Made by a program: the position numbers and the translations under genes
Assembly (NCBI GenBank): GCA_963702565.1
Contig: CAVPDE010000023.1
Coordinates: forward strand, 52,601 to 116,600
Source: an uncultured delta proteobacterium
GTDB taxonomy: Bacteria; Desulfobacterota; DSM-4660; Desulfatiglandales; HGW-15
DNA length: 64,000 bases
Direction: 5' to 3'
Notes under the pieces: model-generated
What the model was told of the DNA's origin: nothing
Seen by the model: only the letters and a program-made list of their open reading frames with translations
The model's database searches: none
Shown here: one piece after another, positions 8,884-35,036 of the stretch
How the letters are laid out: every line of letters starts with the position of its first letter
Numbering within the stretch: the stretch's first letter is position 1

Positions 8884-8956
8884 GTCCACCTATTCACCAC
8901 AGAGGCACAGAGCATGCGGAGGGAGATTATTTTTCTCTTTGCTGTGGTGAGTCAAA

Positions 8957-10513
8957 TCATGCCTTCCGCATAACAGACATCTTCAGGGCCGAAGGGGCAA
9001 GAGACAAGCCGCCAAGGGCGGTGCATTTGAGCTCGGCCGGGAGCATCTTTCCAACCGCATAGACCGCATCAATGGTTTCATCCAGGGGAATGGGGTTGGC
9101 GTAACCGCCGAGAATAAGATCAGCGCATAGAAATGCCGAGGAGGCTGCTACTGCATTCCTGGTGTGGCAGGGAATCTCGACCGCGGCCTGAACAGGATCG
9201 CACACAAGCCCCATGGTGTTCTGAAAGGAGATCGCCGCTGCGTTGGCCGCCTGGGCTGCGGTTCCGCTTGCCGCTTCAACGACCGCAGCCGCAGCCATAG
9301 CTCCGGCTGCCGCGATCTCGACCTGGCACCCTGCCACTTCGGCAGCAAAGGTCGCACGGTTGGCTACAATCAATCCAATCGCTGATGCGGCGCAAAGGGC
9401 CAAAGCCGCATCCTGAACGCTCAACCCTTTGTCTTCAACGAGGCTCACCACAACCCCGGGTATCACGCCAGCCGAGCCTGCAGTCGGCGCGGCACACACC
9501 ACGCCTCCTCCGGAGTTGATGTGCATGACCGCCATAGCTCTGGCTCCGGCGCGGGCGTGAATTCCTCCCACGGCCAATCTTCCCTCCGCCTCCGCCTGCA
9601 AAATGCTCCTTGCAGAGGGATGAAGCAATTGCATGGGCGGAAGCTTCTCCTTGAGACCCTGATGTACCGATGCCCTCATGATCCCAAAGCGCCTTATGAT
9701 TTCCTCCATGATTTCCTGCTCGGGAAGGCCAAGGAGGGTCGCTTCGTAGTCTAAGGCTATCCGTCCAAGGGATAAAGACCGTGAAATCGCAAGGGCAATA
9801 ATTTCATCGGCGGTCGCAAACAGGGGTTCCCCCTGAAGAGGGAAGAAAACCGGAGGAGCGGTCCAGATGTGACGGACGCCTTTCAGCGCTCCTAACCTAG
9901 ACTCTGTTTGAGGGTCGAGCGCCGAATGAAGCTTGAGATGAATAAGGGCAAGATCCCCGCGAGCCTGACGCTCAGGAGGGCCGAGCGGGTTTCCGCTCCT
10001 GTTGATCAGTTCAAGAACGGCAGATTCGGTGTCTGCCATTGTCTCAATAAACAACTCGTGCGCATTCCCCGTGAGCAGGATAGGCCAGCGATCCAAGCGG
10101 ATGAACTGGAATGTCCCGCCTCCGATCGATTGGGCTGTGGTGGAGAGCGGCTTGCCGCTTCGGGAGACCATCCGAATCTCCACGGTGTTGGGGTGATCGG
10201 CTTCAGGCAAAGGCTCAGTGGTGAATTCTATTTTGAGCCCTCTTTCAGCGGCAAGGTCCAAAGCCTGGGGAAACCGTTCGTCCGTGATCGGCAGGCCCAG
10301 GAGTCCGGCCGCAAACCCGAGATCGCTTCCCTGGCGGCGATAGACCTGCGAAAAAGATCCCTTCGGGTCAAAAGCGAAGGTCGCGGATGAGGGTTCCTCC
10401 CCCAGAAGGGCGCGGGCAATCGTGCCGATGAAAAACGGCGCAGCCGTGTGCGAACTGGAAGGCCCGCGCATGACCGGACCGAGCACATCATTTAGAATGC
10501 TGATTGGTTTCAT
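8957..10513 (-). CDS. sdaA: Iron-sulfur L-serine ammonia-lyase family protein (single-chain beta+alpha)
   Basis: GPSSSHTAAP near the N-terminus. CAAPTAGSAGVIPG and GLVCDPV..EIPCHTRNA are motifs typical of Fe-S serine dehydratases. Confidence 0.85.
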   Translation of the reverse strand: MKPISILNDVLGPVMRGPSSSHTAAPFFIGTIARALLGEEPSSATFAFDPKGSFSQVYRRQGSDLGFAAGLLGLPITDERFPQALDLAAERGLKIEFTTEPLPEADHPNTVEIRMVSRSGKPLSTTAQSIGGGTFQFIRLDRWPILLTGNAHELFIETMADTESAVLELINRSGNPLGPPERQARGDLALIHLKLHSALDPQTESRLGALKGVRHIWTAPPVFFPLQGEPLFATADEIIALAISRSLSLGRIALDYEATLLGLPEQEIMEEIIRRFGIMRASVHQGLKEKLPPMQLLHPSARSILQAEAEGRLAVGGIHARAGARAMAVMHINSGGGVVCAAPTAGSAGVIPGVVVSLVEDKGLSVQDAALALCAASAIGLIVANRATFAAEVAGCQVEIAAAGAMAAAAVVEAASGTAAQAANAAAISFQNTMGLVCDPVQAAVEIPCHTRNAVAASSAFLCADLILGGYANPIPLDETIDAVYAVGKMLPAELKCTALGGLSLAPSALKMSVMRKA

Positions 10514-10547
10514 ATACAGAACTCCACGTGCCGCCCAACTTTCGGCT

Positions 10548-11588
10548 TCAAGCAGGGTCCGCTTTTGCGAGGTGGGCGGCCATGCGGATCGCCTGGATCA
10601 GGGACTGGGGGTTGGCACGGCCTTCACCTGCTTTCCCAAAAGCCGTGCCGTGATCCACGGATGTGCGGATAATGGGAAGCCCGAGCGTTACATTGACGCC
10701 GGAGAGCTGGCCCCACGTTGCCGTCTTGTCGTCGTACTGGAAGCCCACGAGCTTGGTGGGGATGTGACCCTGGTCGTGATACATGACCACCACGGCATCA
10801 TACATGCCGCCCTTCATCTTGGAGAAAATCGTGTCCGCTGGGATAGGCCCTTCGACCTGCAACCCCAAAGCACGGGCCTCGTTCACGGCAGGCAGGATTT
10901 CCTGCTCGTCTTCATATCCGAAAAGCCCGCCTTCCCCGCAGTGGGGGTTTAATCCGGCCACGCCGATGCGGGGGGAGCCAATGCCCAGACGCTTCAGTGC
11001 GTCGGCTGTGAGCTCGATCACCCGCTTGACTCTCGCCTTTACGACCCGATCGCACGCTTCCCTGAGCGACACATGGGTGGAAACGTGGACCACGCGAAAA
11101 TTCTCCTCAGCGAGCATCATGGCGTAATCCTTCGTCTTGGTCAGCTCTGCATAGATCTCCGTGTGGCCTGCAAAGGGATACCCCCCGGCATTCAGAGCCG
11201 CCTTGTTGATAGGGCATGTGACGGTTCCGTGGATGCGGCCTGAGAGGGCCAACTCGATGACCTTGGCCACATACTCAAAGGAGGCCTTGCCCTGCTCAGG
11301 CGTGACCTGCTTGTGGCGAAGCTTTTCCAGGGGGAGGTTGGCAAGATCCAGCACATCCACCGTGCCATGGGAGTAGAGTCCCTCTTCCGGTGCAGTGAAC
11401 CGGTGAATGGCAAGGTTGAGCTTTGTAAAACGAACCGCATCCGCCATGACAGCGGCATCACCCACTACCAGAGGTCTGCACAATTCATAGAGCTCAGGGA
11501 GGTTCAAGGATTTGGTGCAGATTTCCGGACCGATTCCGCCCGGGTCGCCCATAGAAATGCCGAGAATAGGCCTAGCGTGTTGAGCCAT
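10548..11588 (-). CDS. PdxA-family 4-hydroxy-acid-4-phosphate dehydrogenase (PdxA2-like by context)
   Basis: MGDPGGIGPEI, CPINKAALN, GLNPHCGEGG and VDHGTAFG motifs. Start moved to ATG 11588 (MAQHARPILG...), which overlaps the upstream gene by 17 nt. Confidence 0.85.
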   Translation of the reverse strand: MAQHARPILGISMGDPGGIGPEICTKSLNLPELYELCRPLVVGDAAVMADAVRFTKLNLAIHRFTAPEEGLYSHGTVDVLDLANLPLEKLRHKQVTPEQGKASFEYVAKVIELALSGRIHGTVTCPINKAALNAGGYPFAGHTEIYAELTKTKDYAMMLAEENFRVVHVSTHVSLREACDRVVKARVKRVIELTADALKRLGIGSPRIGVAGLNPHCGEGGLFGYEDEQEILPAVNEARALGLQVEGPIPADTIFSKMKGGMYDAVVVMYHDQGHIPTKLVGFQYDDKTATWGQLSGVNVTLGLPIIRTSVDHGTAFGKAGEGRANPQSLIQAIRMAAHLAKADPA

Positions 11589-12855
11589 GGCTTGGATCCT
11601 TTCCTGAAACGAGCATTTCATAGATTCGGACCAGTGCGTCTGAAGCGCCGAAGGCGCCGGGCTTGACGACCACCGGCAGACCGTGAAGAGGGCCCATGCA
11701 GAAGTACCCAAGAACAATACCCGGAAGAAGTTCCTGCTCAAGGAGGACAGCTTTTGCCTCAAGGGCTTTCAAGAGTGCAGAGGCAGTGTCACCGCCTGAA
11801 ACAAAGATCCCGTCAGGCCGCACATCGCGCACGATCGATGACACGAGCTCCACAAGCCCATCGAGGAGGTCCTCCCCGTAAGCCGGAGAGGGCGAAACAC
11901 TCGGAGCCTTGATTTTAAACACGACAGCCCCTGAAACCAGGCTGCCGGCGGCCGCTTGGGCCGCGTTCGAAATCCACGCCCTCCTCGCCGCAGAACCCAG
12001 GTCCCGGGGATCGAGAAAGTAGGATGAGCAGGAGAAGGATCGCACGAGTTCCAGGACCTGGACATCGAGAATTCCGGAAGCCGATCCACAAACAAAGAGG
12101 ATCCGTCTCCCCACCGGGTTGAGCAGAGTTCGGGTTCCGGCGGGGCCGGAAAAAAGAAGGGGAGAGAGGCTGGAGGCCAAGCCCGCGGATCCGACCAGAA
12201 GGGTCTTTGGGAATTGCCCGACCGCGAGGTTCGCCAGGGCATCGAGGTGGGCCTGGCTCGCTGCATCGAAGACGATGTGTCTGGCGCCCTGCCGGATCAG
12301 TCGCCGGACGTGGTCGCCGAGTCCCTCGGGAGGTCCCTCCAGGATTTCCAGGTCAACGTGGGCTATCGCATGGCGGCTCTGACGACCGAGAACAAGCGAG
12401 ACGCGCGATTCCGTCACCGGTGATACAGGATCACGAGCCATCTCTGTTTCGGCAAGAGGAACCCCTCGGAGATAATGCACGTCGTGTAGAACCGAGCGGC
12501 CTTGGGCAGGCAACGCAGGTGCGACAAAGCTCGCGTCAAATTCCAGGGTCTCTGCAAGGGCATCCAGTTCAGCGCCGATGTTGCCTCTGAGGCAGGAGTC
12601 GATTTTCTTGTAGATGCGACTGGGCCTCAGGTCTTTTATTGCAGCAGCCGCGGGCCCAAGCGCTTCAGCCGCTTGATCCGGCGGCACATTCCTGGTGTTG
12701 GTAGAAAGGGCAAGAGAGTGAGGCGCTGCCGGAAAGGGGAAGGAGCGGAGGTGATCCTGAGCGAGAAGATAGGTGGGCGCCTCTGCTCTACAGAACTGGA
12801 TGCCTGTGTCTGCAGCGCCCGTGAGATCATCGGCAATGACGGCAGCCCTCAGCAT
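11572..12855 (-). CDS. Four-carbon acid sugar kinase family protein (DUF1537; YgbK/OtnK/DtnK-like)
   Basis: N-terminal VIADDLTGAADTG motif and ~420-aa two-domain length are characteristic of DUF1537 kinases. Confidence 0.8.
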   Translation of the reverse strand: MLRAAVIADDLTGAADTGIQFCRAEAPTYLLAQDHLRSFPFPAAPHSLALSTNTRNVPPDQAAEALGPAAAAIKDLRPSRIYKKIDSCLRGNIGAELDALAETLEFDASFVAPALPAQGRSVLHDVHYLRGVPLAETEMARDPVSPVTESRVSLVLGRQSRHAIAHVDLEILEGPPEGLGDHVRRLIRQGARHIVFDAASQAHLDALANLAVGQFPKTLLVGSAGLASSLSPLLFSGPAGTRTLLNPVGRRILFVCGSASGILDVQVLELVRSFSCSSYFLDPRDLGSAARRAWISNAAQAAAGSLVSGAVVFKIKAPSVSPSPAYGEDLLDGLVELVSSIVRDVRPDGIFVSGGDTASALLKALEAKAVLLEQELLPGIVLGYFCMGPLHGLPVVVKPGAFGASDALVRIYEMLVSGKDPSHGSTR

Positions 12856-14141
12856 GAAGATCCCTTGGCAGTTTCCGGACCCAGGGGAAGCAGATCGGGC
12901 GAGTGGGTGAGCACAGTGAGACGGGCAGAAGTCCCTTGCCTTCTCAGGGCTTCCTCAATGGCCCATTCGATGCTGGGAGCATGGGTGTGTCCGAGTTTTG
13001 CCTTGTGCTCCGCCGGAATTCCGGGCGAAAAGGTAATGACCGAGGCTTTCTCTCGTACCATGGCCCAAGCCACGGCCAGGGCACAGGCGACTCCGTTCTT
13101 GAGTTCCCCGCGGCGATAGGCGGCTTTGATCCTGTCCGAAGGCCAGGAGGTGAAGTTCAGGAGCTCGGTGTGGACAGGGCTCACTCCTTCGGGAGCGGGC
13201 GTGCAGATGATGATGGTGCCGCCCGGCTTCACCATACGCTGGGCCGGGTACTGGGACTTGTGGGACTGCCAGAAGTCTAGGTCGCAGGGACAGGAGTTGG
13301 CCAAAACGATGTCCGGTGTCTCGTGGTACGGGACCCCGTAGATTTTTCGCGCCAGCCTCACGCCTTCACGAAAAACCGCTCTCATCTCTCCGAAGAAGAA
13401 CCCGGCCACCCGGCCGGTCGTGTCCATGACCACATTGAAGATCGTGTTCATGCCCACCTTGTCGGCCATGTCGTCCATGTCCTGCCGAACCGGATTGTCT
13501 TCATATCCCAGAAAGGAATCGCCCCCGCTTTCACAGGAGAGCATGTGGGTCTCGGCAGTGGTTATGGCCCCGCAAACGCCGGGCTGAATGATCTTGGACG
13601 AACCGGAGAAACCCGGGATGTGATGAGGCACAATGGCCCCCAACCCGATCACCACATCGGCTTCCGCGACCAAGCGGTTGACCAGGAGCGGTGTTCCGCG
13701 GCTGGAGGTCCCCAGGTCCACAAGCACGTCTGGATTGCGCCACTCATGGTTCAACACCCTGATGCGTTTGAAGACCGCAGGCCCCACCTTGGCGACGATC
13801 TCCTGTTCTGTCATGTAGCGGTGGGTCCCCAGGGCGATGAGGCAGGCGATCCTATGATCAGGCACGCCTGCCCGGTTGAGGCGACGGAGGAGAGCCGGAA
13901 TCATGTGGTCGACAGGGGTGGAACGGGTGTTGTCGTCGCTGACCAGAAGGACCCGATCCGTAGGCTTCACCGCGGTTTCCAGGGGAGCTTGATGAATCGG
14001 ATGGTCAAGGCTGTGCTCGATTTCGGTTTCCACGGCCGCAATCGTGGGGTAGGGCTTCGGGCTCAGGACCTCGGCGAGATTTCGGTCCGGCACTTGAAAC
14101 CGGTAGGGCTTTCCGTCAAACGGGATGGTGACCTCAGCCAT
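12849..14141 (-). CDS. LarA-superfamily (DUF2088) nickel-pincer-dependent hydroxy-acid racemase/epimerase homologue, copy 1
   Basis: LALGTHR, VPHHIPGFSGSSK and a His 16 residues after that Lys. These align with the L. plantarum LarA positions I recall as His108, His174, Lys184 and His200. Confidence 0.8.
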   Translation of the reverse strand: MAEVTIPFDGKPYRFQVPDRNLAEVLSPKPYPTIAAVETEIEHSLDHPIHQAPLETAVKPTDRVLLVSDDNTRSTPVDHMIPALLRRLNRAGVPDHRIACLIALGTHRYMTEQEIVAKVGPAVFKRIRVLNHEWRNPDVLVDLGTSSRGTPLLVNRLVAEADVVIGLGAIVPHHIPGFSGSSKIIQPGVCGAITTAETHMLSCESGGDSFLGYEDNPVRQDMDDMADKVGMNTIFNVVMDTTGRVAGFFFGEMRAVFREGVRLARKIYGVPYHETPDIVLANSCPCDLDFWQSHKSQYPAQRMVKPGGTIIICTPAPEGVSPVHTELLNFTSWPSDRIKAAYRRGELKNGVACALAVAWAMVREKASVITFSPGIPAEHKAKLGHTHAPSIEWAIEEALRRQGTSARLTVLTHSPDLLPLGPETAKGSSC

Positions 14142-14160
14142 GGAGCTCTCCCTGCGTCCT

Positions 14161-15432
14161 TTACATGAATGTCCTGGGCAGGAACGTGCTGAGCCATGGG
14201 AGGTAGGTCACGATGGCCAGCACGATGAGGGCGACGATGAAAGGCTTCCAGATGGCTCTGCCCAGGCGATCGATGGATATGCTGGATATTCCGCATACGG
14301 CGAAGAGGACCGCCCCCACCGGGGGGGTGATCAGACCCAGAACAAGATTCAGGCAGATGACGATCCCGATGTGAACCGGGTCGATCCCAAGGCTGGCGGC
14401 AACCGGCGCGAGCACGGGGGTCACGATCACCAGGGCCGGCGCTGTTTCTATGGGAATCCCGAGGATCAGGAGAAAGACGTTGATGAGCATGAGGATGATG
14501 TAAGGGGACGTGGTCAGCTTGGTCAGCCACTCGATCACGAGCTGGGGGATCTGGTCCACGGCAACGATCCAGGCAAAAGGCTCGGACATGGCAATGAGCA
14601 GCATGACCATGCCGGATTCCAGCCCTGCTTTGAGCAGGACATCAGGAAGGTTTTTCAAGGTCAACTTGCGGTAGATAAACCCTCCCACGAGGGCAGCATA
14701 CACCACCGTGATGCCGGCGGCTTCTGTGGGGGTGAACATGCCGCTCAGGATGCCGCCCATGATCAGGACCGGCATGAAAATCGCCGGAAGCGCCTTCCAT
14801 GCAGCGACAAGGATGTCTTTGATCGGCACTCTCTGATCGCGGGGATACTTGCGAACCGATGCCTCCCAGTACATGTAGATCATTAAAGCCAGGCCCAGCA
14901 GGATGCCCGGAAGAACTCCGCCCAGAAAAAGGGCGCCGATGGAAACATTGGCCGATACGCCGTAAATGATGAAGGGAATGCTGGGAGGGATGATCGGTCC
15001 CATGCATGAGGCGGTGGAGGTCAGGGCAGCGGCCACGTCCTCGTCGTAGCCGGCCTTTTTCATGGCCGGGATCATGACCACGCCGATAGCCACCGCCGTG
15101 GCCACGGCAGCGCCCGAGATCGCGGCGAAGATGGCGCAGGCGAAAATCGTGGCATGGCCAAGCCCGCCGCGAATGTGTCCCAGCAGCATGCGGGCGAAGC
15201 TCACCAGCACCGGCGTGATGCCGCCCGCATTCATCAGGTTGCCGGCCAGCATGAAGAGCGGGATCGCGAGCAGGGGAAAGGTCGCCAGGCCGCCGAAAGT
15301 GGTTTGAATCAGTGTCGTGATGGGCATGTTGCCGATGATCAGGGCATAGGCCAGGGAACAGCCGCCCAAGGCCACGATGATGGGGGCCGACATGCAGAGG
15401 AGCGCAATGAAGGATCCGGCAAATACGATCAT
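14161..15432 (-). CDS. dctM: TRAP transporter large permease
   Basis: Polytopic ~423-aa membrane protein with DctM-like sequence. Start moved to ATG 15432, giving an ATGA overlap with dctQ. Confidence 0.9.
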   Translation of the reverse strand: MIVFAGSFIALLCMSAPIIVALGGCSLAYALIIGNMPITTLIQTTFGGLATFPLLAIPLFMLAGNLMNAGGITPVLVSFARMLLGHIRGGLGHATIFACAIFAAISGAAVATAVAIGVVMIPAMKKAGYDEDVAAALTSTASCMGPIIPPSIPFIIYGVSANVSIGALFLGGVLPGILLGLALMIYMYWEASVRKYPRDQRVPIKDILVAAWKALPAIFMPVLIMGGILSGMFTPTEAAGITVVYAALVGGFIYRKLTLKNLPDVLLKAGLESGMVMLLIAMSEPFAWIVAVDQIPQLVIEWLTKLTTSPYIILMLINVFLLILGIPIETAPALVIVTPVLAPVAASLGIDPVHIGIVICLNLVLGLITPPVGAVLFAVCGISSISIDRLGRAIWKPFIVALIVLAIVTYLPWLSTFLPRTFM

Positions 15433-15920
15433 CGCGCCTCTCCTTCCGCCCTCAGACCGAGAAAGCCAAGAAACTCCTCCAATGTGAGAAAGAACATGAT
15501 CAGAAAGCCCAAGGGAAGAGCTGCATAAGGGAAGGTCATGATCAGGCCGATGGCAGGGGAAGTCTGTTTCCAGTTGTAAATGGTCTGGAAAAGCCCATAG
15601 CCGAACATGGCGCCGAAGAAACCCAGAGTTAAGACGTACATCGAGAACTTCAGCATTCTTGCGGTCGCAGGCGGAACAGAGTCCAGAACCGAGGTCATGC
15701 TGACCATGTACCCTTTCTTGAGCCCCACCGCTCCTCCCAGCATGGAAGCCCAAACCAGGGAGTAGGTGGAAACTTCCCCTGTCCAGATATTCATCTTTTG
15801 AAACACGTAGCGGCCGATCACCTCATAGGGGATGACCATGGCGATGACGGCCATGAAAAGGATCGTGCCCCAGCTTCCCAGTTTCACGAGCCATTCGTTG
15901 AAACGCGTGAGTGCGCGCAT
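15429..15920 (-). CDS. dctQ: TRAP transporter small permease
   Basis: 163-aa four-TM protein directly upstream of dctM. Start at ATG 15920 (MRALTRFNEWL...). Confidence 0.8.
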   Translation of the reverse strand: MRALTRFNEWLVKLGSWGTILFMAVIAMVIPYEVIGRYVFQKMNIWTGEVSTYSLVWASMLGGAVGLKKGYMVSMTSVLDSVPPATARMLKFSMYVLTLGFFGAMFGYGLFQTIYNWKQTSPAIGLIMTFPYAALPLGFLIMFFLTLEEFLGFLGLRAEGEAR

Positions 15921-16002
15921 TGAACAACTCCCGCCCGCCTGAACAACGAGGGTGCATGGGCGCCTGTTCCTGTGAGAAGAGAAGGCGCCCGCAACCCCCC
16001 TT

Positions 16003-16989
16003 CTACTTCGCATTCATGATGGTTTCAATCTCCGCCTTGGGGAACTCTTTGCTGAAGGCATCATAAGTGGGTCCCATCGCCTTCCGGAAGCTCTCCCGGT
16101 CCACGTCGCGGATGACGGTGACTCCCTTCTCGGTCATCTCTTTGAGCTTCGCCTCTTCAGCGTCGCGGTTGATCTTCCTCTGGAATTTGCCCACCTCATA
16201 GGAGGTCTTGAGGAATAGCTCCTGGTCCGCCTTGGGCATGGCGTCAAAAGTCTTCTTGCTCATGAGAAAGGGCGATGGTGAGTAGACGTGCGCCGAAAAA
16301 GAGAAGAATTTCTGGCCCGCATCCCACAGCTTGTTGCTGTAAATCACGGCAATCGGGTTTTCCTGGCCGTCAATAACCTTCTGCTGCAAGGCGGTGAAGA
16401 CTTCGCCCCAGGACATGGGCGTGGGGTTCAGGCCTGCATCCTTCCACGCGGAGAGATGAATCTTGTTTTCCATGGTCCTGATCTTCAGGCCCTTGGCGTC
16501 CTCTACCTTCTTGACCGCGATCTTGGAATTGGTCAGGTGGCGGAAACCGTTTTCCCAGAAGGAAAGGGCCTTGATTTGGGCCTTCTCAAAGTCGTCCAGG
16601 AGTTTGCGGCCAATAGCGCCGTCCAGCACAGAGTCCACGTGATTGAAGTCCCGGAAGAGAAAAGGAAAGTCCAGGATGTTGATGGAGGGGCTGAACCCTC
16701 CCAGAGGTCCGGTCGACGTGACGAGCAGGTCAATGGCGCCCTGCTGAATGCCTTCGGTCATCTCGCGCTCGCCTTTGCCCAACTGGTTGCTCGGGTAGAG
16801 TTTGATGACAATGCGGCCCTGGGTCCTTTCGTTGATCAGATCCGCGAACTTCTGGGCTCCCACCATGTAGGGGTGGTCCATGGGCTGGGTGGAGGCCAGC
16901 CTCATGGTGGCCTTGTACTGGGCCGACGCCGGCCCGATCCAAAGGACAACCATTACCACTGCAAGACACAACACCAACGCTTTCTTCAT
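16003..16989 (-). CDS. dctP: TRAP transporter substrate-binding protein
   Basis: Signal peptide MKKALVLCLAVVMVVLWIGPASA. DctP-family sequence including the carboxylate-binding Arg context (ENGFRHLTN). GGAGGAA RBS. Confidence 0.9.
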   Translation of the reverse strand: MKKALVLCLAVVMVVLWIGPASAQYKATMRLASTQPMDHPYMVGAQKFADLINERTQGRIVIKLYPSNQLGKGEREMTEGIQQGAIDLLVTSTGPLGGFSPSINILDFPFLFRDFNHVDSVLDGAIGRKLLDDFEKAQIKALSFWENGFRHLTNSKIAVKKVEDAKGLKIRTMENKIHLSAWKDAGLNPTPMSWGEVFTALQQKVIDGQENPIAVIYSNKLWDAGQKFFSFSAHVYSPSPFLMSKKTFDAMPKADQELFLKTSYEVGKFQRKINRDAEEAKLKEMTEKGVTVIRDVDRESFRKAMGPTYDAFSKEFPKAEIETIMNAK

Positions 16990-17134
16990 GTTCGTTCCTC
17001 CTTTTTCATCAATGCGGATCATTAATCGTCTTGAACCGATACAAACGCAATAACCGAACAAATCCACCCCGCCAGAGGCGGATAAACCTCGCCCCCCTTT
17101 ACTCAAGAGGGGATGGGGGGATTTTGAATGACTG

Positions 17135-17155
17135 AGCAAAATGATAATTCATTTG
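17135..17155. promoter_or_regulatory. Candidate operator palindrome inside the operon's largest intergenic gap
   Basis: 'gcaaaatga taat tcatttgc': the arms are reverse complements apart from one extra A. Confidence 0.25.
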
Positions 17156-17214
17156 CTGTGTTTGTATCAGCGTCGACAGTGCATTTCTCCTGCCTCGGCC
17201 CTTTCCACCGGCGG

Positions 17215-18534
17215 CTACCTTTCCCCCTTTTGCACCAGCATGGGAAAGGTATTGGCCCCCTGGGGCATGATCGTGATTCTCGGGTTCTTGGTGCCGCACT
17301 TCTCATAGGCCAGTCGCAAGGCTTCATCCATGGTGCTCACCGGGAGAACGCCGGCTTTCGCAGCCAGTTCAAGGTTTTCCCGGCGCGTGAGGAGTATCAT
17401 GCTGCCTTTGCGACCATATTCGATCTGTCGCACTGCCACCCAGCCCGAGATCAGGAAATTGGCTCTCACGGCTTTTTCCATTTCCAGGAAGGTGGGATAG
17501 CTGAACCAGTCAAAAAACTCCTTGGGGTCTGCGATGTCAGGGCATTCGGCCAAGGCCACGACCGCTCCGCCCTGCTTCATGGCACAGACGGCATTGTCGA
17601 TTGTTTTCTGGCTCTGGTACAGATTGATGTCCTTGGGGTATCCGCCTGCCGTGGCGATCACGATGTCGGCCTGCTCCTCGATTTCCACCCCGAAAATATC
17701 ATCTACCATCCGCGTGGCTTCAAGCCAAGCTGAAATCCAGTTGCCCGCAAAGATCCCCGTGATCTCGCCGTCTAGATTGGGGACCACGTTGACGATGAAA
17801 TCCGGTTTTGCAAAAGCCGCCACCTCCATCATGTCTTCATGGGCCGGGTTTCCCTTGGTCATCTTGTTGGCGGCAAGAGCGCTGGAGCCGGCGCCCACTT
17901 CCCTTTCCATGGCCCACAGGTGGCTCTGCTGGATGGTCTTCAAAGACGAGACGCCGGGCATGATGCTTTTCCGGCCTCCGCCGTAACCCACCATGTAGTG
18001 GTAGATCACGCCGCCGGTGAGGATCACTTTGTCGGCTTCGACCACAAGGCGGTTCAGGGAAACCTCCGTGCCCCGGCTGGTCCTGCCCAGGTAAACCATG
18101 TTCTCTGTGTCCCAGGCATTGTGATTGACCACACGGACTCTCCGGCACACTCCCTCGCTGCAAAGCTCCATGAACTCGTCGACCGTGTTCTGGCGGTGAG
18201 CCCCGACGGCTATGATGACGGTCATGTTGTCGTCGGAGACGCCGGCCTCGTTCAAGTAATTGAGAAGAAGAGGCAGGGTGTCCGCGTTTCTCTGCCACCC
18301 ACGGGTCACATCGCTCACCGTGATGGCAATTTTGTCACCAGGCCGGATCAATTCCCTGAGAGGCGGGCTGTCAATGGGATGGTCCAGGGCGTGACGATAG
18401 GCCGCAGCCAGATCCGCCTGGGGTTTGCGGTCGCGGCCCAGCAGCTCATTGAGAAGATGGGCTTTGGGGATAGAGAAGGAGACCTCCCCTTTCCCGTACT
18501 TCAGGGTAAAGCGTTTCTCTTTCACTTTTCCCAC
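17215..18534 (-). CDS. LarA-superfamily (DUF2088) nickel-pincer-dependent hydroxy-acid racemase/epimerase homologue, copy 2
   Basis: AVGAHRQ, IYHYMVGYGGGRKSIMPG and His 16 residues after the Lys (QQSH); also GNPAHEDM. GTG start at 18534 overlaps the panB stop by 13 nt. Confidence 0.85.
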   Translation of the reverse strand: MGKVKEKRFTLKYGKGEVSFSIPKAHLLNELLGRDRKPQADLAAAYRHALDHPIDSPPLRELIRPGDKIAITVSDVTRGWQRNADTLPLLLNYLNEAGVSDDNMTVIIAVGAHRQNTVDEFMELCSEGVCRRVRVVNHNAWDTENMVYLGRTSRGTEVSLNRLVVEADKVILTGGVIYHYMVGYGGGRKSIMPGVSSLKTIQQSHLWAMEREVGAGSSALAANKMTKGNPAHEDMMEVAAFAKPDFIVNVVPNLDGEITGIFAGNWISAWLEATRMVDDIFGVEIEEQADIVIATAGGYPKDINLYQSQKTIDNAVCAMKQGGAVVALAECPDIADPKEFFDWFSYPTFLEMEKAVRANFLISGWVAVRQIEYGRKGSMILLTRRENLELAAKAGVLPVSTMDEALRLAYEKCGTKNPRITIMPQGANTFPMLVQKGER

Positions 18535-19367
18535 TCCGCCGCCAGCTTCCCGGCCTCTCCCTCTGCCATGCGATACACGTGCTCTTCGCCCGGGAAGACT
18601 CCGCTGCGCACTTCTTTGACATACGCGGCAAACACCTTTCGGTACTCGTCGGCCACGTTGCCATACTTCTTCACGAACTTGGGGGTGAAGGCCTGGAACA
18701 GGCCGAGGATGTCCGAGCAGATCATGACTTGGCCGTCGCAGTCCCCGGCCCCGATGCCGTAAACCGGAATGGGAATTTCCCTGCAGATGATCCGGGTGAC
18801 CTCGGGCGGCACGCCTTCCACCAGCACGGAGAAAGCTCCTGCCTCGTAAACGGCCTTGGCGTCTTCAATGACGGCCCTCGCGCTTTCTGCAGTGCGGCCC
18901 TGCGCCTTGAATCCTCCAAGAGCGCTGGAGCTCTGGGGAGTCAGGCCCACATGTCCCATGACCAGCATGCCGCCGTCGCTAATGGCCCGGATGATTTGAG
19001 CCACGCGCACGCCCCCTTCCAGCTTGACACAATCCACCCCGGCTTCCTTGTAGAAGCGGATGGCGCTTCGGCAGGCCTCTTCAACTCCGACCTGGTAAGA
19101 GCCGAAGGGCATGTCGCCGATAACAAAGGTGTTGGGTGCACCCCGGCGAACGGCCTCTGTATGATAGATGCACTGGTCCATGGTGACCGGCACGGTCCCC
19201 GGGTATCCGTAAACCGCCATCCCGAGGCTGTCGCCGACCAGGATCATGTCCATGCCCGCTTCCTCAGCCAACTGGGCGGTGATGAAATCATAAGAGGTGA
19301 CCCAAACCGCTCGCTGGCCTTTCTCTTTCATGTTTTGAAGATCAAATCGTGTGAGTTTCTTTTTCAT
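18522..19367 (-). CDS. panB: 3-methyl-2-oxobutanoate hydroxymethyltransferase family protein
   Basis: VTSYDFITAQLAEEAGMDMILVGDSLGM and GDMPFGSYQ motifs with typical PanB length. GGAGGA RBS upstream of ATG 19367. Confidence 0.85.
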   Translation of the reverse strand: MKKKLTRFDLQNMKEKGQRAVWVTSYDFITAQLAEEAGMDMILVGDSLGMAVYGYPGTVPVTMDQCIYHTEAVRRGAPNTFVIGDMPFGSYQVGVEEACRSAIRFYKEAGVDCVKLEGGVRVAQIIRAISDGGMLVMGHVGLTPQSSSALGGFKAQGRTAESARAVIEDAKAVYEAGAFSVLVEGVPPEVTRIICREIPIPVYGIGAGDCDGQVMICSDILGLFQAFTPKFVKKYGNVADEYRKVFAAYVKEVRSGVFPGEEHVYRMAEGEAGKLAAEWEK

Positions 19368-19501
19368 GTGCCTTTCCTCCTGCCTGTCCCTGAAGATCCT
19401 TTTGACAATAGTTGAATCGGAGAAGGTGGGATTTTCGCATGTGGACGGCCTAAGTCAACGAAAATCTGGTCGTCCATAAGGCCTTCGGTTTCCATTCCTG
19501 C

Positions 19502-22192: not shown

Positions 22193-23230
22193 GGGGTCAC
22201 ATCTTGAATTGTGAATTAAGTTTCTTCACTTTTCGCCCCACCCGTGGGTCTTTCTTGATGTGTTCCTTCACATCCCTGACAATATGGCTGACTGCCGAAT
22301 AGGAAACTCCGAAAACTTGCCCAATTTCCTCATTCCGGAACGCTCCCATCTCCCAAAGGGCATAAACCACAAGATCCCGATCCTCTTTCATCCCTCCTCG
22401 AACCCTCTGTCCCGGAGTATATCCATTCATCTCTCTCCCCAGCAAGGCCGCGGCATGCTTGGCTGCCCCCTTCAAGTCGATGCTTCCAAGCACCTTCTTC
22501 AGTTGAGGGATTTCCTTGTGAGCCACAATACCTCCTCTCGAAGACCGGATATCTTCCACAAATCCCTCACTTCCTAGTATCACTCCGTGCCGGAAGTCCT
22601 CCCAGAGCCGACCCTCCTCTCCGGCATACTCCTGTACCTTCTTCCTGTAAGCCTTGTGCCCCCTTCTGCCTCCAAAATAAGACAGAATAAGATCCGTCTT
22701 CAGCCAATCGGCTCCCTTCTTCCCATAGGCGTACGCAGGATAACTGCTCCAGCGGTAGTCGATCAGGCGCTTCACCATCCCCGCTCTCAACGGGTTCCTA
22801 TGGACATAACAGGACAGTTCCACGACGTAAGCATCGTTTTCCACCACCATGGCTTTGAATCGCCCCTGGAAGAGGTGTCCGTGTCTCCCCAGCCGGTTAT
22901 TGAGCCTGCGCGCATAGGTCAGCCCGAGCCACTGCATGGCCCTGGATAGATTGGGTAGGTTTGTACGTAGAATCAGATGGTAGTGGTTGCTCATCAGAAC
23001 AAAGGCAAAGACATCTATCTTGAAGCGATCCGATGTCTCCCCAAGCGTGCGTAGGAACAGCTTCCGATCTCCATCGTCGAAAAAGATATTCCTTCCTTCA
23101 TTGCCCCTGGACAGGACATGATAGTAAGCCCCTCCATACTGTATCCGCCACGGTCTAGCCAACGTTATTGCCTCCTGAATTGCCATCACCTCTATACTGC
23201 ATAATAATTCACAATTCAAGATGTGACCCC
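22193..23230 (-). mobile_element. REPtron-like unit: RAYT-type Y1 transposase gene bracketed by perfect 26-bp inverted repeats
   Basis: 'ggggtcacatcttgaattgtgaatta' (22193-22218) is the exact reverse complement of 23205-23230. Each copy contains a tcaca/tgtga hairpin. Confidence 0.65.
22197..23186 (-). CDS. IS200-like/REP-associated tyrosine (Y1, HUH) transposase with a C-terminal DnaA-domain-IV-like HTH
   Basis: HUH motif in MSNHYHLIL, and CYVHRNPLRAGMV (Tyr motif typical of COG1943/RAYT proteins). C-terminus VVYALWEMGAFRNEEIGQVFGVSYSAVSHIV resembles the DnaA C-terminal HTH. Start moved to ATG 23186. Confidence 0.75.
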   Translation of the reverse strand: MAIQEAITLARPWRIQYGGAYYHVLSRGNEGRNIFFDDGDRKLFLRTLGETSDRFKIDVFAFVLMSNHYHLILRTNLPNLSRAMQWLGLTYARRLNNRLGRHGHLFQGRFKAMVVENDAYVVELSCYVHRNPLRAGMVKRLIDYRWSSYPAYAYGKKGADWLKTDLILSYFGGRRGHKAYRKKVQEYAGEEGRLWEDFRHGVILGSEGFVEDIRSSRGGIVAHKEIPQLKKVLGSIDLKGAAKHAAALLGREMNGYTPGQRVRGGMKEDRDLVVYALWEMGAFRNEEIGQVFGVSYSAVSHIVRDVKEHIKKDPRVGRKVKKLNSQFKM

Positions 23231-23339
23231 TCCACCCCATGGGATTGGGAATCAGGGGCGCGCAACAGAAAGGAGGGCCAACCTCCAATTCGGTCAGGCG
23301 ACATCCTGACGGAGAAAGAGCCGGCCCCAAATACGGGAA

Positions 23340-26412: not shown

Positions 26413-26542
26413 GAATTTCACCGCAGCACAACTAGAGACTGGTTGAAACACGGCATTTATATTATCATGCATGCTTATTTCAGGGTTGCGGGTTGTCCTC
26501 AACGCTCAACCTGCAGTCACCCATTTGCAAAGGAGGGAGTTC

Positions 26543-28322
26543 ATGGCGGATAAAACCACAGGCGGCGCAATCATAGCGCGAATGCTCAAACAGGAAGGAG
26601 TCGAGAAGTTCTTCGGAATCATCGACGGAACCTACACCCAGCTCTTCAAGAACTGTGTGGACATGGGGATGCAGATGATCACCCCGCGCCACGAGTCCAT
26701 TGCGGCGCACATGGCGGGCGCCTACGCCAGGCTGACCGGGAAGCTCGGCGTGTGTTTGGCCTCGAGCGGCCCAGGGGTTGCCAACGTGCTCAGCGGAGCC
26801 TGCGTTGAAAACGCGGAAGGCAACCGCGTGCTGCTGATCACCAGTTGCCGGCGAACACCGGTTACCTACCCTGATCGGGGTGGGGCTTACCAGTTCTTTG
26901 ATCAGGTAGGGGTCATCAAGGCCATGTCCAAATGGTCTTGTGCGGTCCCTTCCTTTGACCGGATCCCGGAACTCATGCGCCGCGCGTTGAGGGTGTGCTA
27001 TGAGGGACGTCCCGGGATCGTGCACATCGATGTGGCAGAGAATCTCATGAACGGCGAGGGTCCCGAGAAGGTCATTCTGAAGCCGCATCAATACCGCCGG
27101 ATAGAGCCTTTTGAGCCTTCCCCGGCAGAAGTGGGACGGGCCGCGGACATGCTCGCCTCGGCAGCACTCCCCGTCATTCACGCGGGCAGCGGAATCATTC
27201 ATGCCGGCGCCTACGCGGAGCTTGCGGAACTTGCTGAGATGCTGCAGGCGCCGGTCACCACTTCCTGGGCGGCCCGAGGGGTGCTTGACGAGAGAAATCC
27301 GCTCTCCATGTGCATGATCCACATCAAGGCCGTCAACCAGGTCCGCAACGAGGCCGACGTGGTTCTGTGCCTGGGGTCGCGCATTGGGGAAACCGACTGG
27401 TGGGGCAAGGCGCCTTACTGGGCGACACCCGATGTCCAGAAGCTCATCCAGGTGGATGTGGATGAGGAGGCGATCGGTCGCACCAGGCCTGTGGATTTGG
27501 GTGTGGTCGGGGATGTGAAGGTCTTCCTGCAGAAGCTGATCGGGGCGCTGAAGGACCGCAAGGTTTCACCTGCCCCAAGAAAGGAAAAGGTCTCCCGCTT
27601 GGCGGGGGAGGCGGCGGCGGATCGGGCCGAGCTGGACAAGAAGCTCCAGGATACAGGCTCGCCCATGCTTACCGGCCATGTGGGTCACATATGCAGGGAA
27701 GTGTTTCCGGATGACTGCCGTGGCCGTATTTGACGGAGGAAATGCGGCGGTTTGGGCCAATTTCTATCACCAGGTGCGGGTGCCCAACACCCTGTTGACC
27801 ACCAATCACATGGGCCACCTGGGGGCCGGTGTGGGCCAAACCCTCGGCGCCTGCGCTGCGCGTCCGGACAAGAAGGTCTACTGCATCATCGGCGACGGAG
27901 CCATGGGGTTCCATCCCCAGGAAATCGAAACCGCCGTGCGCAACCGATTCAAACCCGTATTCCTGGTGGTCACCGACAAGCAGTGGGGCATGGTCAAGAT
28001 CAACCAGAGTTTTGCCCTCAAGTTCTACAAGGCCCTGTGGAACTTCAAGGTGAAAGGGAAAGCCCTGGAACCGGAGGAAACCATCAACACCGAATTGTGT
28101 GAAATCGAGTGGGATATGCTGGCCCGATCTATGGGCGCCTATGGCGAACGGGTGTCTGACCCTGCACAACTGAGGCCCGCCCTGGAGCGCTGCCTGAAAT
28201 CCGACAAATGCGCCGTGATCCACGTGGACGTGGATCCGGTCAAGCACATGATGGCGCCTGGACTGATCCACTTCAAAAACATGCACCAGGAACCCAAAGG
28301 GGAAGTGAGTCGAGCCCATGCC
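26543..28322 (+). pseudogene. Thiamine-diphosphate enzyme (acetolactate synthase-like family), interrupted by a +1 frameshift near 27716
   Basis: The N-terminal Pyr and middle domains are in the frame of ATG 26543 (...REVFPDD). The PP domain (AVAVFDGGNAA...GDGAMGF) continues in the next frame after one extra nt. Combined length ~593 aa is normal for the family. Confidence 0.7.
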
Positions 28323-29289
28323 ATGGATAAGAATGTGTTCATCACCGGTGCCGGTGGATACATCGGCAGCCTGACGGTTGCTGCTCTTGCCAAGAGCCGA
28401 GGCAGCGTGAACAGGATCATCGCGGCAGACATCCGGCCGGTAGCCGAGGACCGTCGGGTTGCCGGAGTGGAGTACGTTACAGCAGATATCCGAGATCCCG
28501 GGCTCGGGACATTGTTCCTGGAGCATCAGGTGGACATCGTGGTCCACCTGGCTGCGGTCGTCAATCCAGGCAAAAACCCGGACCGGGATTTTCTTCATGC
28601 CGTGGAGGTGGAGGGTACGCGCAATGTCCTGAAGGCCTGCGTTTCCGCCGGCGTCAAGAAGTTCATCTACACCTCGTCAGGGGCGGCCTACGGATACTAC
28701 AGCGACAATCCTGAATGGCTGACATGAGGACGACCTCATCCGGGGCAACCCCGAGTTTCCCTACTCGGACCACAAGCGCCAGGTGGAGGAGATGCTGGCG
28801 GACCACCGGCAAGCGCATCCGGAGCTGAAGCAATTGATCTTCCGGTGCTGCACGATTCTGGGGGCCACGGCGAAAAACCAGATCACCGACCTCTTCGACG
28901 GAAAACGCGTGCTTGGGCTCACCGGCTGCGAGATCCCTTTCGTCCTCATCTGGGACATGGATGTGGTCGGGGCCATTCTCAAGGGCATCCTTGAGGAGGA
29001 TTCCACCGGCATCTACAACGTGGCTGGGGACGGGATTCTCACCATGAAGGAGATGGCCAGCCTCTTGGGTAAACCCTATGTGGCTGTGCCGCCGGGGCTG
29101 ATCAAAGGGGCCCTCTGGGTCATGAAAAAATTGAGGGTAACCCAGTATGGCCCGGAGCAGGTCAATTTCCTGCGATACAGGCCCGTCCTCTCCAACAGGC
29201 GGCTCAAAGAGGTGTTCGGGTTCTGTCCGCAAAAAACCACACGCGAAGTGTTCCAGTTCTTCCTGGAGTGCAGAAAGAGCGGTGGCTGA
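28323..29289 (+). pseudogene. NAD-dependent epimerase/dehydratase (extended SDR), interrupted by a +1 frameshift at 28722-28725
   Basis: MDKNVFITGAGGYIGS...YTSSGAAYGYYSDNPEWL, then four nt 'acat' where three are needed, then EDDLIRGNPEFPYSDHK (YxxxK) and the rest (ORF 28783-29289) in the next frame. No stop separates it from the upstream ThDP enzyme frame. Confidence 0.7.
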
Positions 29290-33276: not shown

Positions 33277-34417
33277 AACGTCGGAAGTGTGTTCTGCCTA
33301 GCACAGTTCCCTGTAACGAGCCGCTTCGTTTTATGAGATAACCTATTCCAAGTCTACCCAGCCGCTCGCTCATTCCTCGCTCCGCATCACAGTCTTTTGA
33401 CTGAATTCTTCAATTTCACTCTTGATGGTGAAGCTGTCCAGTCATGTAGACTTCGTTTTGTAAACAAAAGAGTTTCAAGCTCTGTGGATTTTCACCATGC
33501 ATTTGGTATGCTTGAATTTGGCTCACACAAAAAACGATCGATTACGGACACAATGCTAAATCAGGTGAGATCCAAAGAACTGTTAGGAGAGTCCAGTCCA
33601 TCCAGAATGCAACATAAGGTATCTATACCGCAGTCTGCAAGCCTGCCAGAAGGCTCATTGATGACATCAATATTCGAGCATTTATAGGCCAAGGTTTTTC
33701 TTGTCAACCGACTTTCACTCCAATCCGCCACGGTTGAGTCACTCCTCACTCACAGAAGTCTTGGGGCCCAAGAGCCAAACTGACAACCACTGAAACCCAT
33801 TTCATGCAGGAACCTGATTGTGCATCAGGTGACGCCGAAATTTACCCAACGAAGAGAGCTAGTTATCTTTTGGATGTGGCGAGATATGACTTTTTAAGGG
33901 CCTCAAGGGACAGAATCGACGTTAAAGAACCGACGCAACGCGCAATAAATCTCAAGAAGCGGCAAACCGTCACGATTTCTGGTTTTAGACAAATGCCTTT
34001 ATCGCTACCCGAGAGAAGTTCCCGGTCCTAACCGGTGAAAAAGTACCTGTGGTTGGTCGGTTAGGAAATACCATCTTTAGAATGCGTACTTTGTCGGACC
34101 GGGTAGGCGAAATATGGATATAGCGTGAGTTTTCGAGAGCCATCCATATCATCCACCATGAATCAATGGCCAAGTCCGTCTTCTCTTTTACCGCTATCCA
34201 AATTTGCCTTGACCCATTGTGATGAATTCTGCTAGACGAATGACAGTTATGTGAGAAACTACAGTTCGGTATCCCGTTTATAATTCGACACGGCACCAGA
34301 TACGCAAAATTGTTCACTTGGGGAATTCTTCATTTACTTGCCCTGATTTTTAAGGGAAAGATAGTTTGTTGGTAGAACATCAACTTTCACGACCGATTAG
34401 GGGGAAGGAGGAGGCTG

Positions 34418-34924: not shown

Positions 34925-35036
34925 GGAGAGCAAATCCGAATCATAAACCGCGACCTAGATAGACGCTTAGCCAACGAAAAATCATCCTTTACGACTGCCG
35001 CAGGTGTGCACTCTTTGACTTGTTTCATCCTTTACA

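Follow-up and report, generated by a model that had tools for sequence, protein, structure and literature searches.

What would one operon do with two LarA-type enzymes, a four-carbon acid-sugar kinase, a PdxA-family decarboxylase, and a PanB protein? This question is raised by a gene cluster at positions 8957-19367 of a 64,000-nucleotide stretch of DNA from an uncultured member of the Desulfobacterota (contig CAVPDE010000023.1, positions 52,601 to 116,600), here called the window. A preliminary description of the window had read the cluster as a single nine-gene pathway for a hydroxy acid. By assigning the genes with Pfam and NCBIfam models and comparing them with related loci, we found that the conserved unit consists of eight genes, which are built as two modules around a tripartite ATP-independent periplasmic (TRAP) importer. 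The genes encode PanB, a first LarA homologue (LarAa), the importer components DctP, DctQ, and DctM, a second LarA homologue (LarAb), a DUF1537 kinase, and a PdxA-family enzyme. We tentatively interpret them as a cluster for the uptake and breakdown of four-carbon acid sugars (tetronates), with Module B formed by LarAb, the kinase, and PdxA, and Module A by PanB and LarAa, a reading which we regard as just short of evenly probable. In this interpretation, we infer the substrate, the direction of the PanB reaction, the order of epimerase and kinase, and the role of each LarA homologue.

The conserved eight-gene unit and its 3' edge

We scanned for LarAb homologues, starting from a relative 99% identical to the LarAb of the window and keeping one genome per species, and obtained 80 loci, mostly from metagenome-assembled genomes (MAGs). 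A look-up for a protein exactly matching the LarAb of the window gave no hit. The window proteins were compared with the related loci by tblastn, and the counts cover only the loci that could be tested for each feature. Neighbour families were clustered with the known genes masked, given the long antisense open reading frames (ORFs) in GC-rich loci. LarAb homologues with 63-99% identity were found to span about 80 species and to be abundant in MAGs of Desulfobacterota. The loci belonged mainly to Desulfobacterales, Desulfobulbales, and Desulfarculales, with a few from Chromatiaceae/Thiosymbion, Rhodospirillales, and Propionibacteriales. Cultured carriers of the cluster were Desulfofustis glycolicus DSM 9705 (L054) and Dethiosulfatarculus sandiegensis SPR (L049).

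All eight genes were found collinear in 21 of the 55 testable species-level genomes, nearly all of them Desulfobacterota. The most conserved adjacency was that of LarAb and PdxA downstream of it (58/65 loci), and the kinase was located between the two in 42/65. DctM was found immediately upstream of LarAb in 33 of 59 loci, and PanB and LarAa were found upstream of it in 26 and 22 of the 59, respectively. A DeoR or IclR regulator headed the cluster in 24/80 loci. A gene of the IlvD family was present in 13/80, placed between DctM and LarAb or straight after PdxA, the latter in eight genomes, and the IlvD-like proteins of both placements pass the ilvD cut-off. Chance juxtaposition of the cluster genes was ruled out by these conservation counts.

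In the window, the ORF coordinates agree with the layout in the preliminary description, with all nine genes on the minus strand (Table 1). ORFs overlap at 18522-18534, 15429-15432, 12849-12855, and 11572-11588, and the gaps measure 225, 82, 19, and 34 nt. The 82-nt gap presumes that DctQ starts at 15920, and a DctQ of the same length is called in 99%-identical relatives. LarAa could start at a GTG at 18534, overlapping PanB by 13 nt, or at a GTG at 18525, where it would share GTGA with the PanB stop codon (4 nt); either start implies translational coupling of PanB and LarAa. A HrpB helicase gene lies directly upstream of the cluster, and the 134-nt gap between it and PanB contains a promoter-like site. 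Terminator-like sites were no commoner than in shuffled sequence, and none was found between PdxA and SdaL, the last of the nine genes. Pfam scans of the other window ORFs (nearly all of at least about 130 aa) revealed neither LarB, LarC, or LarE nor a regulator adjacent to the cluster, as had been described before. The lack of a regulator holds for the window, but not for the relatives with DeoR or IclR at the cluster head. No LarB/LarC-type Pfam family was found among the Pfam-annotated related loci.

SdaL was found to match the L-serine dehydratases at the level of family membership (SDH_alpha, 199 bits) and to fall below the cut-offs of all L-serine dehydratase models (sda_alpha 197 vs 243, sda_mono 139 vs 345, and sda_beta 107 vs 161). 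It was present in none of the 80 LarAb loci. Based on blastn, the PdxA-SdaL junction measures 45 nt in the window. In relatives that are 97-99% identical (L088, 13581-14317, and L097), a 737-nt TumE/HVO_A0114 toxin-antitoxin-like pair lies between PdxA and SdaL, and in an 86% identical relative (one genome, represented by both L066 and L091) the two are separated by 8.4 kb with sensor-kinase, OsmC, and response-regulator genes. A second small indel was found just downstream of SdaL, at about 8934-8942 (8 nt vs 178 nt in sister strains). The genes downstream of SdaL (DsbA-like, B12 radical-SAM, and ABC-F) are syntenic with L091, and distant SdaL homologues, 66-68% identical and found on a contig of a 5.2-Mb genome and in a protein cluster labelled Chloroflexi, stand in unrelated contexts. 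The absence of SdaL from all 80 loci and the variable spacer in close relatives place it outside the conserved system. It thus appears to have come to lie beside PdxA by loss or absence of the variable spacer, and it may be co-transcribed with the cluster in this strain.

A pathway of all nine genes, in which the SdaA-type enzyme would be the dehydratase in place of an IlvD-type one, is extremely improbable. SdaL does begin 34 nt past PdxA in the same orientation, its ATG is preceded by GGAG, nothing terminator-like intervenes, and it occupies the slot that an IlvD-like gene has in eight other genomes. Yet the closest relatives have the toxin-antitoxin cassette or 8.4 kb in that position, SdaL is missing from every related locus, and its homologues of other phyla are found in unrelated or amino-acid-related contexts. 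Enzymes of the SdaA family are not known to us to use non-amino substrates. The idea that SdaL replaces IlvD as a non-orthologous enzyme was ruled out by the variable spacer in close relatives and by the absence of SdaL elsewhere. The co-conserved set proposed in the preliminary description therefore shrinks from nine genes to eight, and its single nine-gene pathway gives way to a conserved unit with a lineage-specific neighbour, the recurrent dehydratase elsewhere being of the IlvD family.

Table 1 Features of the gene cluster in the window.
Feature	Coordinates	Strand	Description
PanB	18522-19367	-	281 aa, first gene; PF02548 342 bits; TIGR00222 298 vs cut-off 208
LarAa	17215-18534	-	436-439 aa; NF052525 (LarAH10 family) 603 bits vs cut-off 540
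DctP, TRAP solute-binding protein	16003-16989	-	328 aa, signal peptide; PF03480 297 bits
DctQ, TRAP small permease	15429-15920	-	163 aa from internal ATG; PF04290; longest ORF extends to 16013
DctM, TRAP large permease	14161-15432	-	423 aa; PF06808 386 bits; TIGR00786 442 vs cut-off 268
LarAb	12849-14141	-	430 aa; Lar_N 190 bits; reaches no NCBIfam equivalog cut-off
DUF1537 four-carbon acid-sugar kinase	11572-12855	-	427 aa; SBD_N and NBD_C
PdxA-family NAD-dependent oxidative decarboxylase, PdxA2-like	10548-11588	-	346 aa; PF04166 349 bits
SdaL, fused beta-alpha Fe-S L-serine-dehydratase-like	8957-10513	-	518 aa; SDH_beta/SDH_alpha
PdxA-SdaL junction	10514-10561		Indel hot spot, true 3' edge of the conserved cluster; blastn vs L088, L097, and L091
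Promoter-like site TTGACT-16-GAAAAT, TG-extended	19431-19458	-	Consensus match only; 64 nt upstream of the PanB start

A candidate route from tetronates to central metabolism

The first indication of the substrate class comes from the importer. Judged by sequence identity, the nearest solved relatives of DctP are binders of D-erythronate and pantoate, namely PDB 4PDD, 4PDH, 4P9K, and 4NQ8 (46, 44, 43, and 40%, respectively). The ligand of 4PDD we take to be D-erythronate. Two types of DctP were found in related clusters, and the same four structures are the best solved relatives of both (37-49% identity). According to a published table, 4PDH binds erythronate, 4P9K pantoate or erythronate, and 4NQ8 pantoate. 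The FRHLTN motif reported in the preliminary description is present in the DctP translation and, together with IRTMEN, aligns with the solved binders, including the carboxylate-binding Arg. In a comparison of motifs only, the states of the window-type DctP agree with 4PDD, 4PDH, and 4P9K and not with the pantoate binder.

We then consider the kinase and PdxA. The kinase matches SBD_N with 198 bits and NBD_C with 73 bits and contains DDLTG and GGDT motifs in its translation. Its score is 214 against the NCBIfam model for D-threonate kinase (DtnK; cut-off 450) and 128 against that for 3-oxo-tetronate kinase (OtnK; cut-off 350). PdxA passes TIGR00557 (340 vs 290), and scores 295 against the D-threonate-4-phosphate dehydrogenase model NF002891, below its cut-off of 583. 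PdxA2-type PDB chains match it with 261-290 bits (6E85 266, 2HI1 261, and 4JQP 290), and the PdxA chains of E. coli, Salmonella, and Pseudomonas with 184-199 bits (E. coli 1PS6, 199). By these scores, the nearest characterised relatives of the kinase and PdxA are the D-threonate pair DtnK and PdxA2. The family and PDB names (the NCBIfam models and 6E85) agree with a two-step D-threonate route by kinase and PdxA2. Clusters of the PdxA-DUF1537 D-threonate type (Zhang et al. 2016) reportedly reach dihydroxyacetone phosphate (DHAP) with the kinase and PdxA2 alone.

The preliminary description had pointed to the absence of the usual partners of this core. LtnD/DenD, OtnI, and OtnC were indeed found neither among the nine genes nor among the recurrent neighbour families of related loci, but the term "usual" mixes two known cluster types. 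Since the PdxA-DUF1537 type reportedly needs only the kinase and PdxA2, the absence of these partners is expected rather than anomalous.

LarAb was compared with the characterised LarA groups. It matches Lar_N (190 bits) and, weakly, LarA_C (20 bits). Its best NCBIfam model is malate racemase (285 vs cut-off 500), and it scores 244 against lactate racemase (cut-off 460). In an alignment of 10 clade members, R73, H107, H173, K183, and H199 were found to be invariant. In LarA of L. plantarum, His108 and His174 are catalytic, Lys184 tethers the cofactor, His200 is a nickel ligand, and Arg75 is the corresponding arginine. At the specificity positions (F175, F176, W358, and T359 of LarA1), LarAb has H174, I175, N349, and G350. 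This combination (H, I, N, G) fits none of the LAR, MAR, HGR, and GntE signatures; the published patterns, listed here in no particular order, are FFW(E/Q), EVAH, YF(H/Q)T, and xx(H/Q)K. With no cut-off reached and the signature unmatched, LarAb is, as far as these comparisons go, a member of no characterised LarA group. Epimerisation at C2 is known for LarA enzymes acting on 4-deoxy-threonate/erythronate and on gluconate/mannonate.

The order LarAb-kinase-PdxA remained constant while the transporter varied. Most loci have TRAP genes. In a Desulfobulbaceae MAG (L034), the three genes occur with DeoR and an ABC system of the CUT1 type, in L080 with DeoR and a ribose-type ABC system, and in L040 with DeoR and a PanB fragment. 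The DeoR or IclR genes at the cluster heads and the swapping of transporters are a catabolic signature of Module B. A DeoR regulator governs the known tetronate operon of Brucella. In L034, a glycerate kinase gene (DUF4147 and MOFRL; 13624-14892) immediately follows LarAb-kinase-PdxA, which hints that glycerate is perhaps a pathway product.

In the proposed Module B, which as part of the cluster would be substrate-inducible, the TRAP importer would take up D-erythronate or a close analogue. LarAb, using the nickel-pincer cofactor, would bring D-erythronate, or its 4-phosphate, into the D-threonate configuration by inversion at C2, the DtnK-like kinase would phosphorylate O4, and the PdxA2-like enzyme would oxidise C3 and decarboxylate the product to DHAP and CO2. 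LarAb would thus act as a bridge, as DctP resembles D-erythronate binders whereas the kinase and PdxA resemble D-threonate enzymes.

Module A was defined by the association of PanB with LarAa. PanB passes both NF001452 (339 vs cut-off 272) and TIGR00222, and retains the motifs VGDSLGM, GDMPF, KLEGG, and VEGVP. LarAa matches Lar_N with 225 bits and LarA_C with 61 bits and scores above the LarAH10-family cut-off. Its R75, H110, H176, K186, and H202 match the catalytic and cofactor residues of LarA and are invariant in 8 clade members. Both LarA homologues are therefore placed outside the bona fide lactate racemases, LarAa by its LarAH10 score and LarAb by reaching no cut-off, in line with the preliminary description.

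In a metagenome scan seeded with LarAa, whose locus set was not dereplicated, PanB was located immediately upstream of LarAa in 39/56 testable loci and was present anywhere in 52/80. The pair also occurs apart from Module B. In L141-L143, the order is IclR-IlvD-PanB-LarAa-TRAP, with no LarAb, kinase, or PdxA, and elsewhere PanB-LarAa stands alone among unrelated genes; no recurrent functional partner was found among the neighbours of these solitary pairs. On one contig (L135, 404-3964), a LarAa-type gene that is 71% identical to LarAa and 30% to LarAb replaces LarAb before kinase-PdxA, an arrangement that ties LarAa to the substrate class of these two enzymes. Fragments of PanB, in which only the C-terminal half matches the profile, were found upstream of LarAb or LarAa in L040 (9499-9906) and L109 (1354-1839); they may be decayed PanB genes.

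Two genomes contain a second PanB. In L081 (13654-15940) and L082 (13819-15648), a PanE gene and a more canonical PanB gene follow directly after PdxA on the opposite strand, so that two PanB paralogues are found within 10 kb. With this second PanB and PanE next door, the cluster PanB is a paralogue in these genomes, and it probably has a reverse, catabolic role. Reversal of PanB towards tetrahydrofolate (THF) has been considered in the literature.

In the proposed Module A, PanB and LarAa would work with an IlvD-type dehydratase, which is encoded in the cluster in some genomes. LarAa would convert C2 of the remaining (2S) isomers to the 2R form required by dihydroxy-acid dehydratases, and dehydration would give 4-hydroxy-2-oxobutanoate. 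PanB, running in reverse, would then transfer the hydroxymethyl group to THF, with pyruvate and 5,10-methylene-THF as products. The latter could be oxidised by these Wood-Ljungdahl-type anaerobes, and no free formaldehyde would be released. The tetronate model would account for the two epimerase-type steps, the recurring IlvD, and the modules living apart.

Weighing the tetronate reading against alternatives

Several observations weigh against the tetronate reading. Both the kinase and PdxA fall below the D-threonate equivalog cut-offs (214 vs 450 and 295 vs 583), which supports the preliminary description in its reading of an unassigned pathway, and their specificity may differ from that of the D-threonate enzymes. 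In 16 genomes, LarAb-PdxA was found to lack a kinase gene at the customary place (in L058 the kinase is just upstream of LarAb), and in at least two of them, L086 and L087, the pair stands among housekeeping-looking genes with neither transporter nor kinase nearby; a purely catabolic role does not explain these kinase-less loci well. The solved binders nearest to DctP are only 37-49% identical and belong to a group that binds pantoate too, and the second DctP type has several conserved motifs altered. PanB-LarAa was found without a nearby transporter or dehydratase, and only 13 of the 80 genomes have IlvD in the cluster. The cluster PanB looks orthodox, and to our knowledge no PanB works physiologically in reverse or on 4-hydroxy-2-oxobutanoate. 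Finally, a GlcD-like FAD dehydrogenase gene was present in 4 of 5 observable clusters that lack LarAa (with PanB, TRAP, and LarAb present), and in 1 of 22 with LarAa (Fisher p = 0.0014, though from only about two independent lineages). This pattern fits a LarAa that forms a 2-oxo acid better than a plain epimerase. Characterised enzymes of the LarAH10 family favour hydrophobic 2-hydroxy acids.

The kinase-less loci bear on a primary role in metabolite repair. LarAb and PdxA would epimerise and decarboxylate toxic 4-phospho-D-erythronate, arising as a side product of erythrose-4-phosphate oxidation, to DHAP, and the kinase and transporters would have been added later to make use of erythronate from outside. 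This would suit the tight adjacency of LarAb and PdxA and the presence of at least 2 of the 16 genomes' pairs amid housekeeping genes, and a need to dispose of 4-phosphoerythronate is known from the literature (CpgA). We nevertheless consider such a primary repair role very improbable. Many kinase-less loci share synteny with a divergently oriented GatZ/KbaZ-like gene, but they largely come from one related genome group, in which the arrangement is possibly inherited rather than functional. The kinase may also be encoded elsewhere, as in Thiosymbion, where it lies 6 kb away, and LarAb would have to accept phosphorylated substrates. In L086 (7644-12347), L087, and about 14 further kinase-less loci, LarAb-PdxA is preceded by a polysaccharide-deacetylase gene and the divergent GatZ/KbaZ-like gene. 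A rubrerythrin gene recurs near LarAb in 20 loci, in contexts both with and without the kinase.

The affinity of the nearest solved binding proteins for pantoate, besides erythronate, raises the question of whether the operon serves two substrates. The importer would then take up (R)-pantoate and D-erythronate, with Module B degrading erythronate and Module A pantoate, an arrangement that we regard as unlikely, though a serious candidate. Of similar standing is the chemistry that it entails, with pantoate oxidised to ketopantoate and PanB in reverse giving 2-oxoisovalerate and methylene-THF, and so is the part given to LarAa, which would be a pantoate or 2-hydroxyisovalerate racemase feeding a stereospecific dehydrogenase. 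A PanB above the panB equivalog cut-off, the PanE and second PanB beside the cluster in L081 and L082, and the GlcD-like 2-hydroxy-acid dehydrogenase of LarAa-less clusters are consistent with this. In the literature, LarAH10 was the only one of the tested enzymes to racemise 2-hydroxy-3,3-dimethylbutyrate, a 4-deoxy analogue of pantoate. Pantoate degradation would give no role, however, to IlvD, the recurrent extra enzyme, and most clusters have no dehydrogenase gene for ketopantoate formation; the motif states of the window DctP, moreover, are those of erythronate binders.

Amidohydrolase genes near PanB-LarAa also touch on pantoate. In the Desulfobacula-like loci L094 and L121 (L121, 7237-19043), the genes after PanB-LarAa encode a peptidase of the S58 (DmpA) type, an ABC transporter of the Opp/Nik type, and an M20 deacylase, a set considered here as a candidate for hydrolysing pantothenate. 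An alanine racemase gene lies upstream of this block, and its binding protein matches NikA best, below the cut-off. The block could provide LarA with nickel or allow the use of D-Ala peptides, and its resemblance to a D-Ala peptide system, next to the alanine racemase gene, counts against a connection with pantoate.

In L049, L065, and L069, the GlcD-like genes lie straight after PdxA, a position that bears on a further alternative, an island for vitamins B5 and B6. PanB, IlvD, and LarAa would make or salvage pantoate and the TRAP importer would scavenge pantoate and erythronate, while LarAb, the kinase, and PdxA would lead from erythronate via 4-phosphoerythronate to 4-phosphohydroxythreonine for pyridoxal 5'-phosphate (PLP), filling the gap left by Epd and PdxB. 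We judge both the pantoate half and the PLP half to be clearly improbable. PdxB and Epd have been reported missing in most such lineages, and the GlcDF-like proteins DVU0826/0827 have been proposed as PdxB. PdxA and PanB pass the vitamin-pathway models TIGR00557 and TIGR00222, pantoate is canonically made by IlvD and then PanB, and DUF1537 kinases are able to phosphorylate 4-hydroxythreonine according to the literature. LarAb-PdxA and PanB-LarAa were both seen in contexts that do not look catabolic, and LarAb, PdxA, and PanB are 63-88% identical across orders, as housekeeping proteins would be.

Nevertheless, PdxA is nearer to PdxA2, described in the literature as catabolic, than to PdxA, and DeoR/IclR regulators and swapped sugar-type ABC transporters typify carbon-source operons. 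A canonical PanB-PanE pair is present in L081 and L082 in addition to the cluster PanB. It is also not obvious what an epimerase would do in either of the vitamin pathways, and a high-capacity TRAP importer would be unexpected for trace vitamins.

The GlcD pattern is compatible with yet another role of Module A, in which LarAa and PanB form an obligate hydrogen-borrowing pair for the redox-neutral excision of a C1 unit. LarAa may oxidise a 2-hydroxy acid (a tetronate or pantoate) and park the hydride on its tethered nickel-pincer cofactor. PanB may then move the C3 hydroxymethyl group to THF, and LarAa give the stored hydride back to the 2-oxo acid shortened in this way. Overall, for example, erythronate + THF may yield glycerate + methylene-THF, or pantoate + THF may yield 2-hydroxyisovalerate + methylene-THF. 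This scheme would fit the pairing and translational coupling of PanB and LarAa in many contexts, the replacement of LarAa by GlcD-type genes in some clusters, the glycerate kinase of L034, and the very poor kinetics of LarAH10 as a racemase, but we regard it as a long shot. If it were true, LarAa would be the first LarA homologue with a physiological job other than racemisation or epimerisation. In a related reading, LarAb may be the missing PdxB step of PLP synthesis, moving hydride from 4-phosphoerythronate to a 2-oxo acid.

Relation to known systems and surroundings of the cluster

The tetronate reading builds on a core that is already known, namely TRAP importer, kinase, and PdxA, to which two LarA homologues and PanB are added. 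We found no paper in the searchable literature that links a LarA homologue (DUF2088) with DUF1537, PdxA, or PanB, and the published table of LarA genomic contexts contains no COGs of these three families. The preliminary description, which knew of no pathway of such composition, was right in this respect as far as the searchable literature goes.

Of the known systems, the D-threonate pathway (DtnK and PdxA2) has the same two families side by side and the same predicted end products, DHAP and CO2, and its enzymes are the best NCBIfam and PDB relatives of those described here, with a TRAP importer present in our cluster whose closest solved relatives are the erythronate/pantoate-binding group. 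It differs in that the enzymes of our cluster score below the cut-offs, that LarAb joins them in a LarAb-kinase-PdxA unit (42/65), that PanB and a second LarA homologue are attached, and that the hosts are anaerobic Desulfobacterota, not Proteobacteria. The aldolase-DUF1537 tetronate pathway shares the substrate class, the DUF1537 kinase, the DHAP product, and, in Brucella, a DeoR-type regulator. In contrast to that pathway, our cluster has no LtnD/DenD, OtnI, or OtnC, its kinase scores lower against OtnK (128) than against DtnK, and C2 would be handled by redox-neutral epimerisation instead of dehydrogenation and isomerisation.

The LarA homologues were also compared with characterised enzymes. 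LarAa passes the family cut-off of LarAH10 of Megasphaera elsdenii and keeps all catalytic and cofactor residues, whereas the published context table for group 10 contains no PanB, TRAP, PdxA, or DUF1537 and LarAa here usually occurs with PanB. LarAH10 is a broad and very slow racemase, and its authors leave its native substrate unresolved; the cluster sets this family beside PanB and offers a physiological context for it. For LarAb, the best relative among structures (165 bits) and NCBIfam models (285) is the malate racemase Mar2 (LarAH6; PDB 6D6Z), but where MAR enzymes have H/Q and K at the W358/T359 positions, LarAb has the invariant N349 and G350. GntE of Thermotoga maritima, a D-gluconate/D-mannonate 2-epimerase of a sugar-acid catabolic operon, follows the logic proposed here, in which a nickel-pincer C2 epimerase turns an imported aldonic acid into the epimer that suits a downstream kinase and pathway. 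It belongs to another LarA group, its substrates are C6 rather than C4 acids, and it has none of the partners PdxA, DUF1537, and PanB. LarAb thus represents an uncharacterised, highly conserved LarA group tied to PdxA, with D-erythronate/D-threonate or their 4-phosphates as hypothetical substrates.

PanB of pantoate biosynthesis (IlvD, then PanB, then PanE) resembles the cluster PanB in passing the cut-off, in its catalytic motifs, and in having an IlvD-like gene and, rarely, PanE nearby. The cluster PanB, by contrast, is located in a regulated transporter operon, is translationally coupled to a LarA homologue, and in L081 and L082 coexists with a further PanB that has PanE beside it. If the tetronate reading is true, the cluster would represent a third logic of tetronate catabolism, with C2 inverted by nickel-pincer epimerisation instead of a dehydrogenase and an isomerase. 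It would also contain possibly the first catabolic PanB, whose folate-dependent, formaldehyde-free retro-aldol step would suit Wood-Ljungdahl anaerobes. The cluster further touches a question of vitamin B6, namely how 4-phosphoerythronate and PdxB are provided or circumvented in Desulfobacterota.

Around the cluster, an IS200-like (Y1_Tnp) transposase ORF of 377 aa was found at 22197-23330 on the minus strand, two genes upstream of the cluster and beyond the HrpB helicase gene, and the region may be prone to rearrangement. Two genes further along the plus strand of the window appear split. A thiamine pyrophosphate (TPP)-dependent enzyme extends over overlapping ORFs at 26471-28727, with the N-terminal and middle domains in 26471-27733 and the C-terminal TPP domain, joined to an NAD-epimerase domain, in 27678-28727; a frameshift, a pseudogene, or faulty assembly could account for the split. 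An iron-containing alcohol dehydrogenase at 31998-33276 is divided over overlapping ORFs (31998-32909 and 32818-33276), likely by a frameshift. The GC content falls from about 0.55-0.60 to about 0.46-0.49 at 34001-38000 and 50001-58000, which may reflect a mosaic origin. The low-GC part contains an acyl-CoA cluster with an AbfD/HpaB-like gene (35037-36518) and enoyl-CoA hydratase, thiolase, and AMP-ligase genes. Within the acyl-CoA cluster, a gene pair at 38472-41083 on the minus strand encodes a GlcD-like protein of 475 aa that binds FAD and an Fe-S protein of 395 aa with a CCG domain, and this pair is of the same enzyme class as the GlcD/GlcF of LarAa-less clusters elsewhere.

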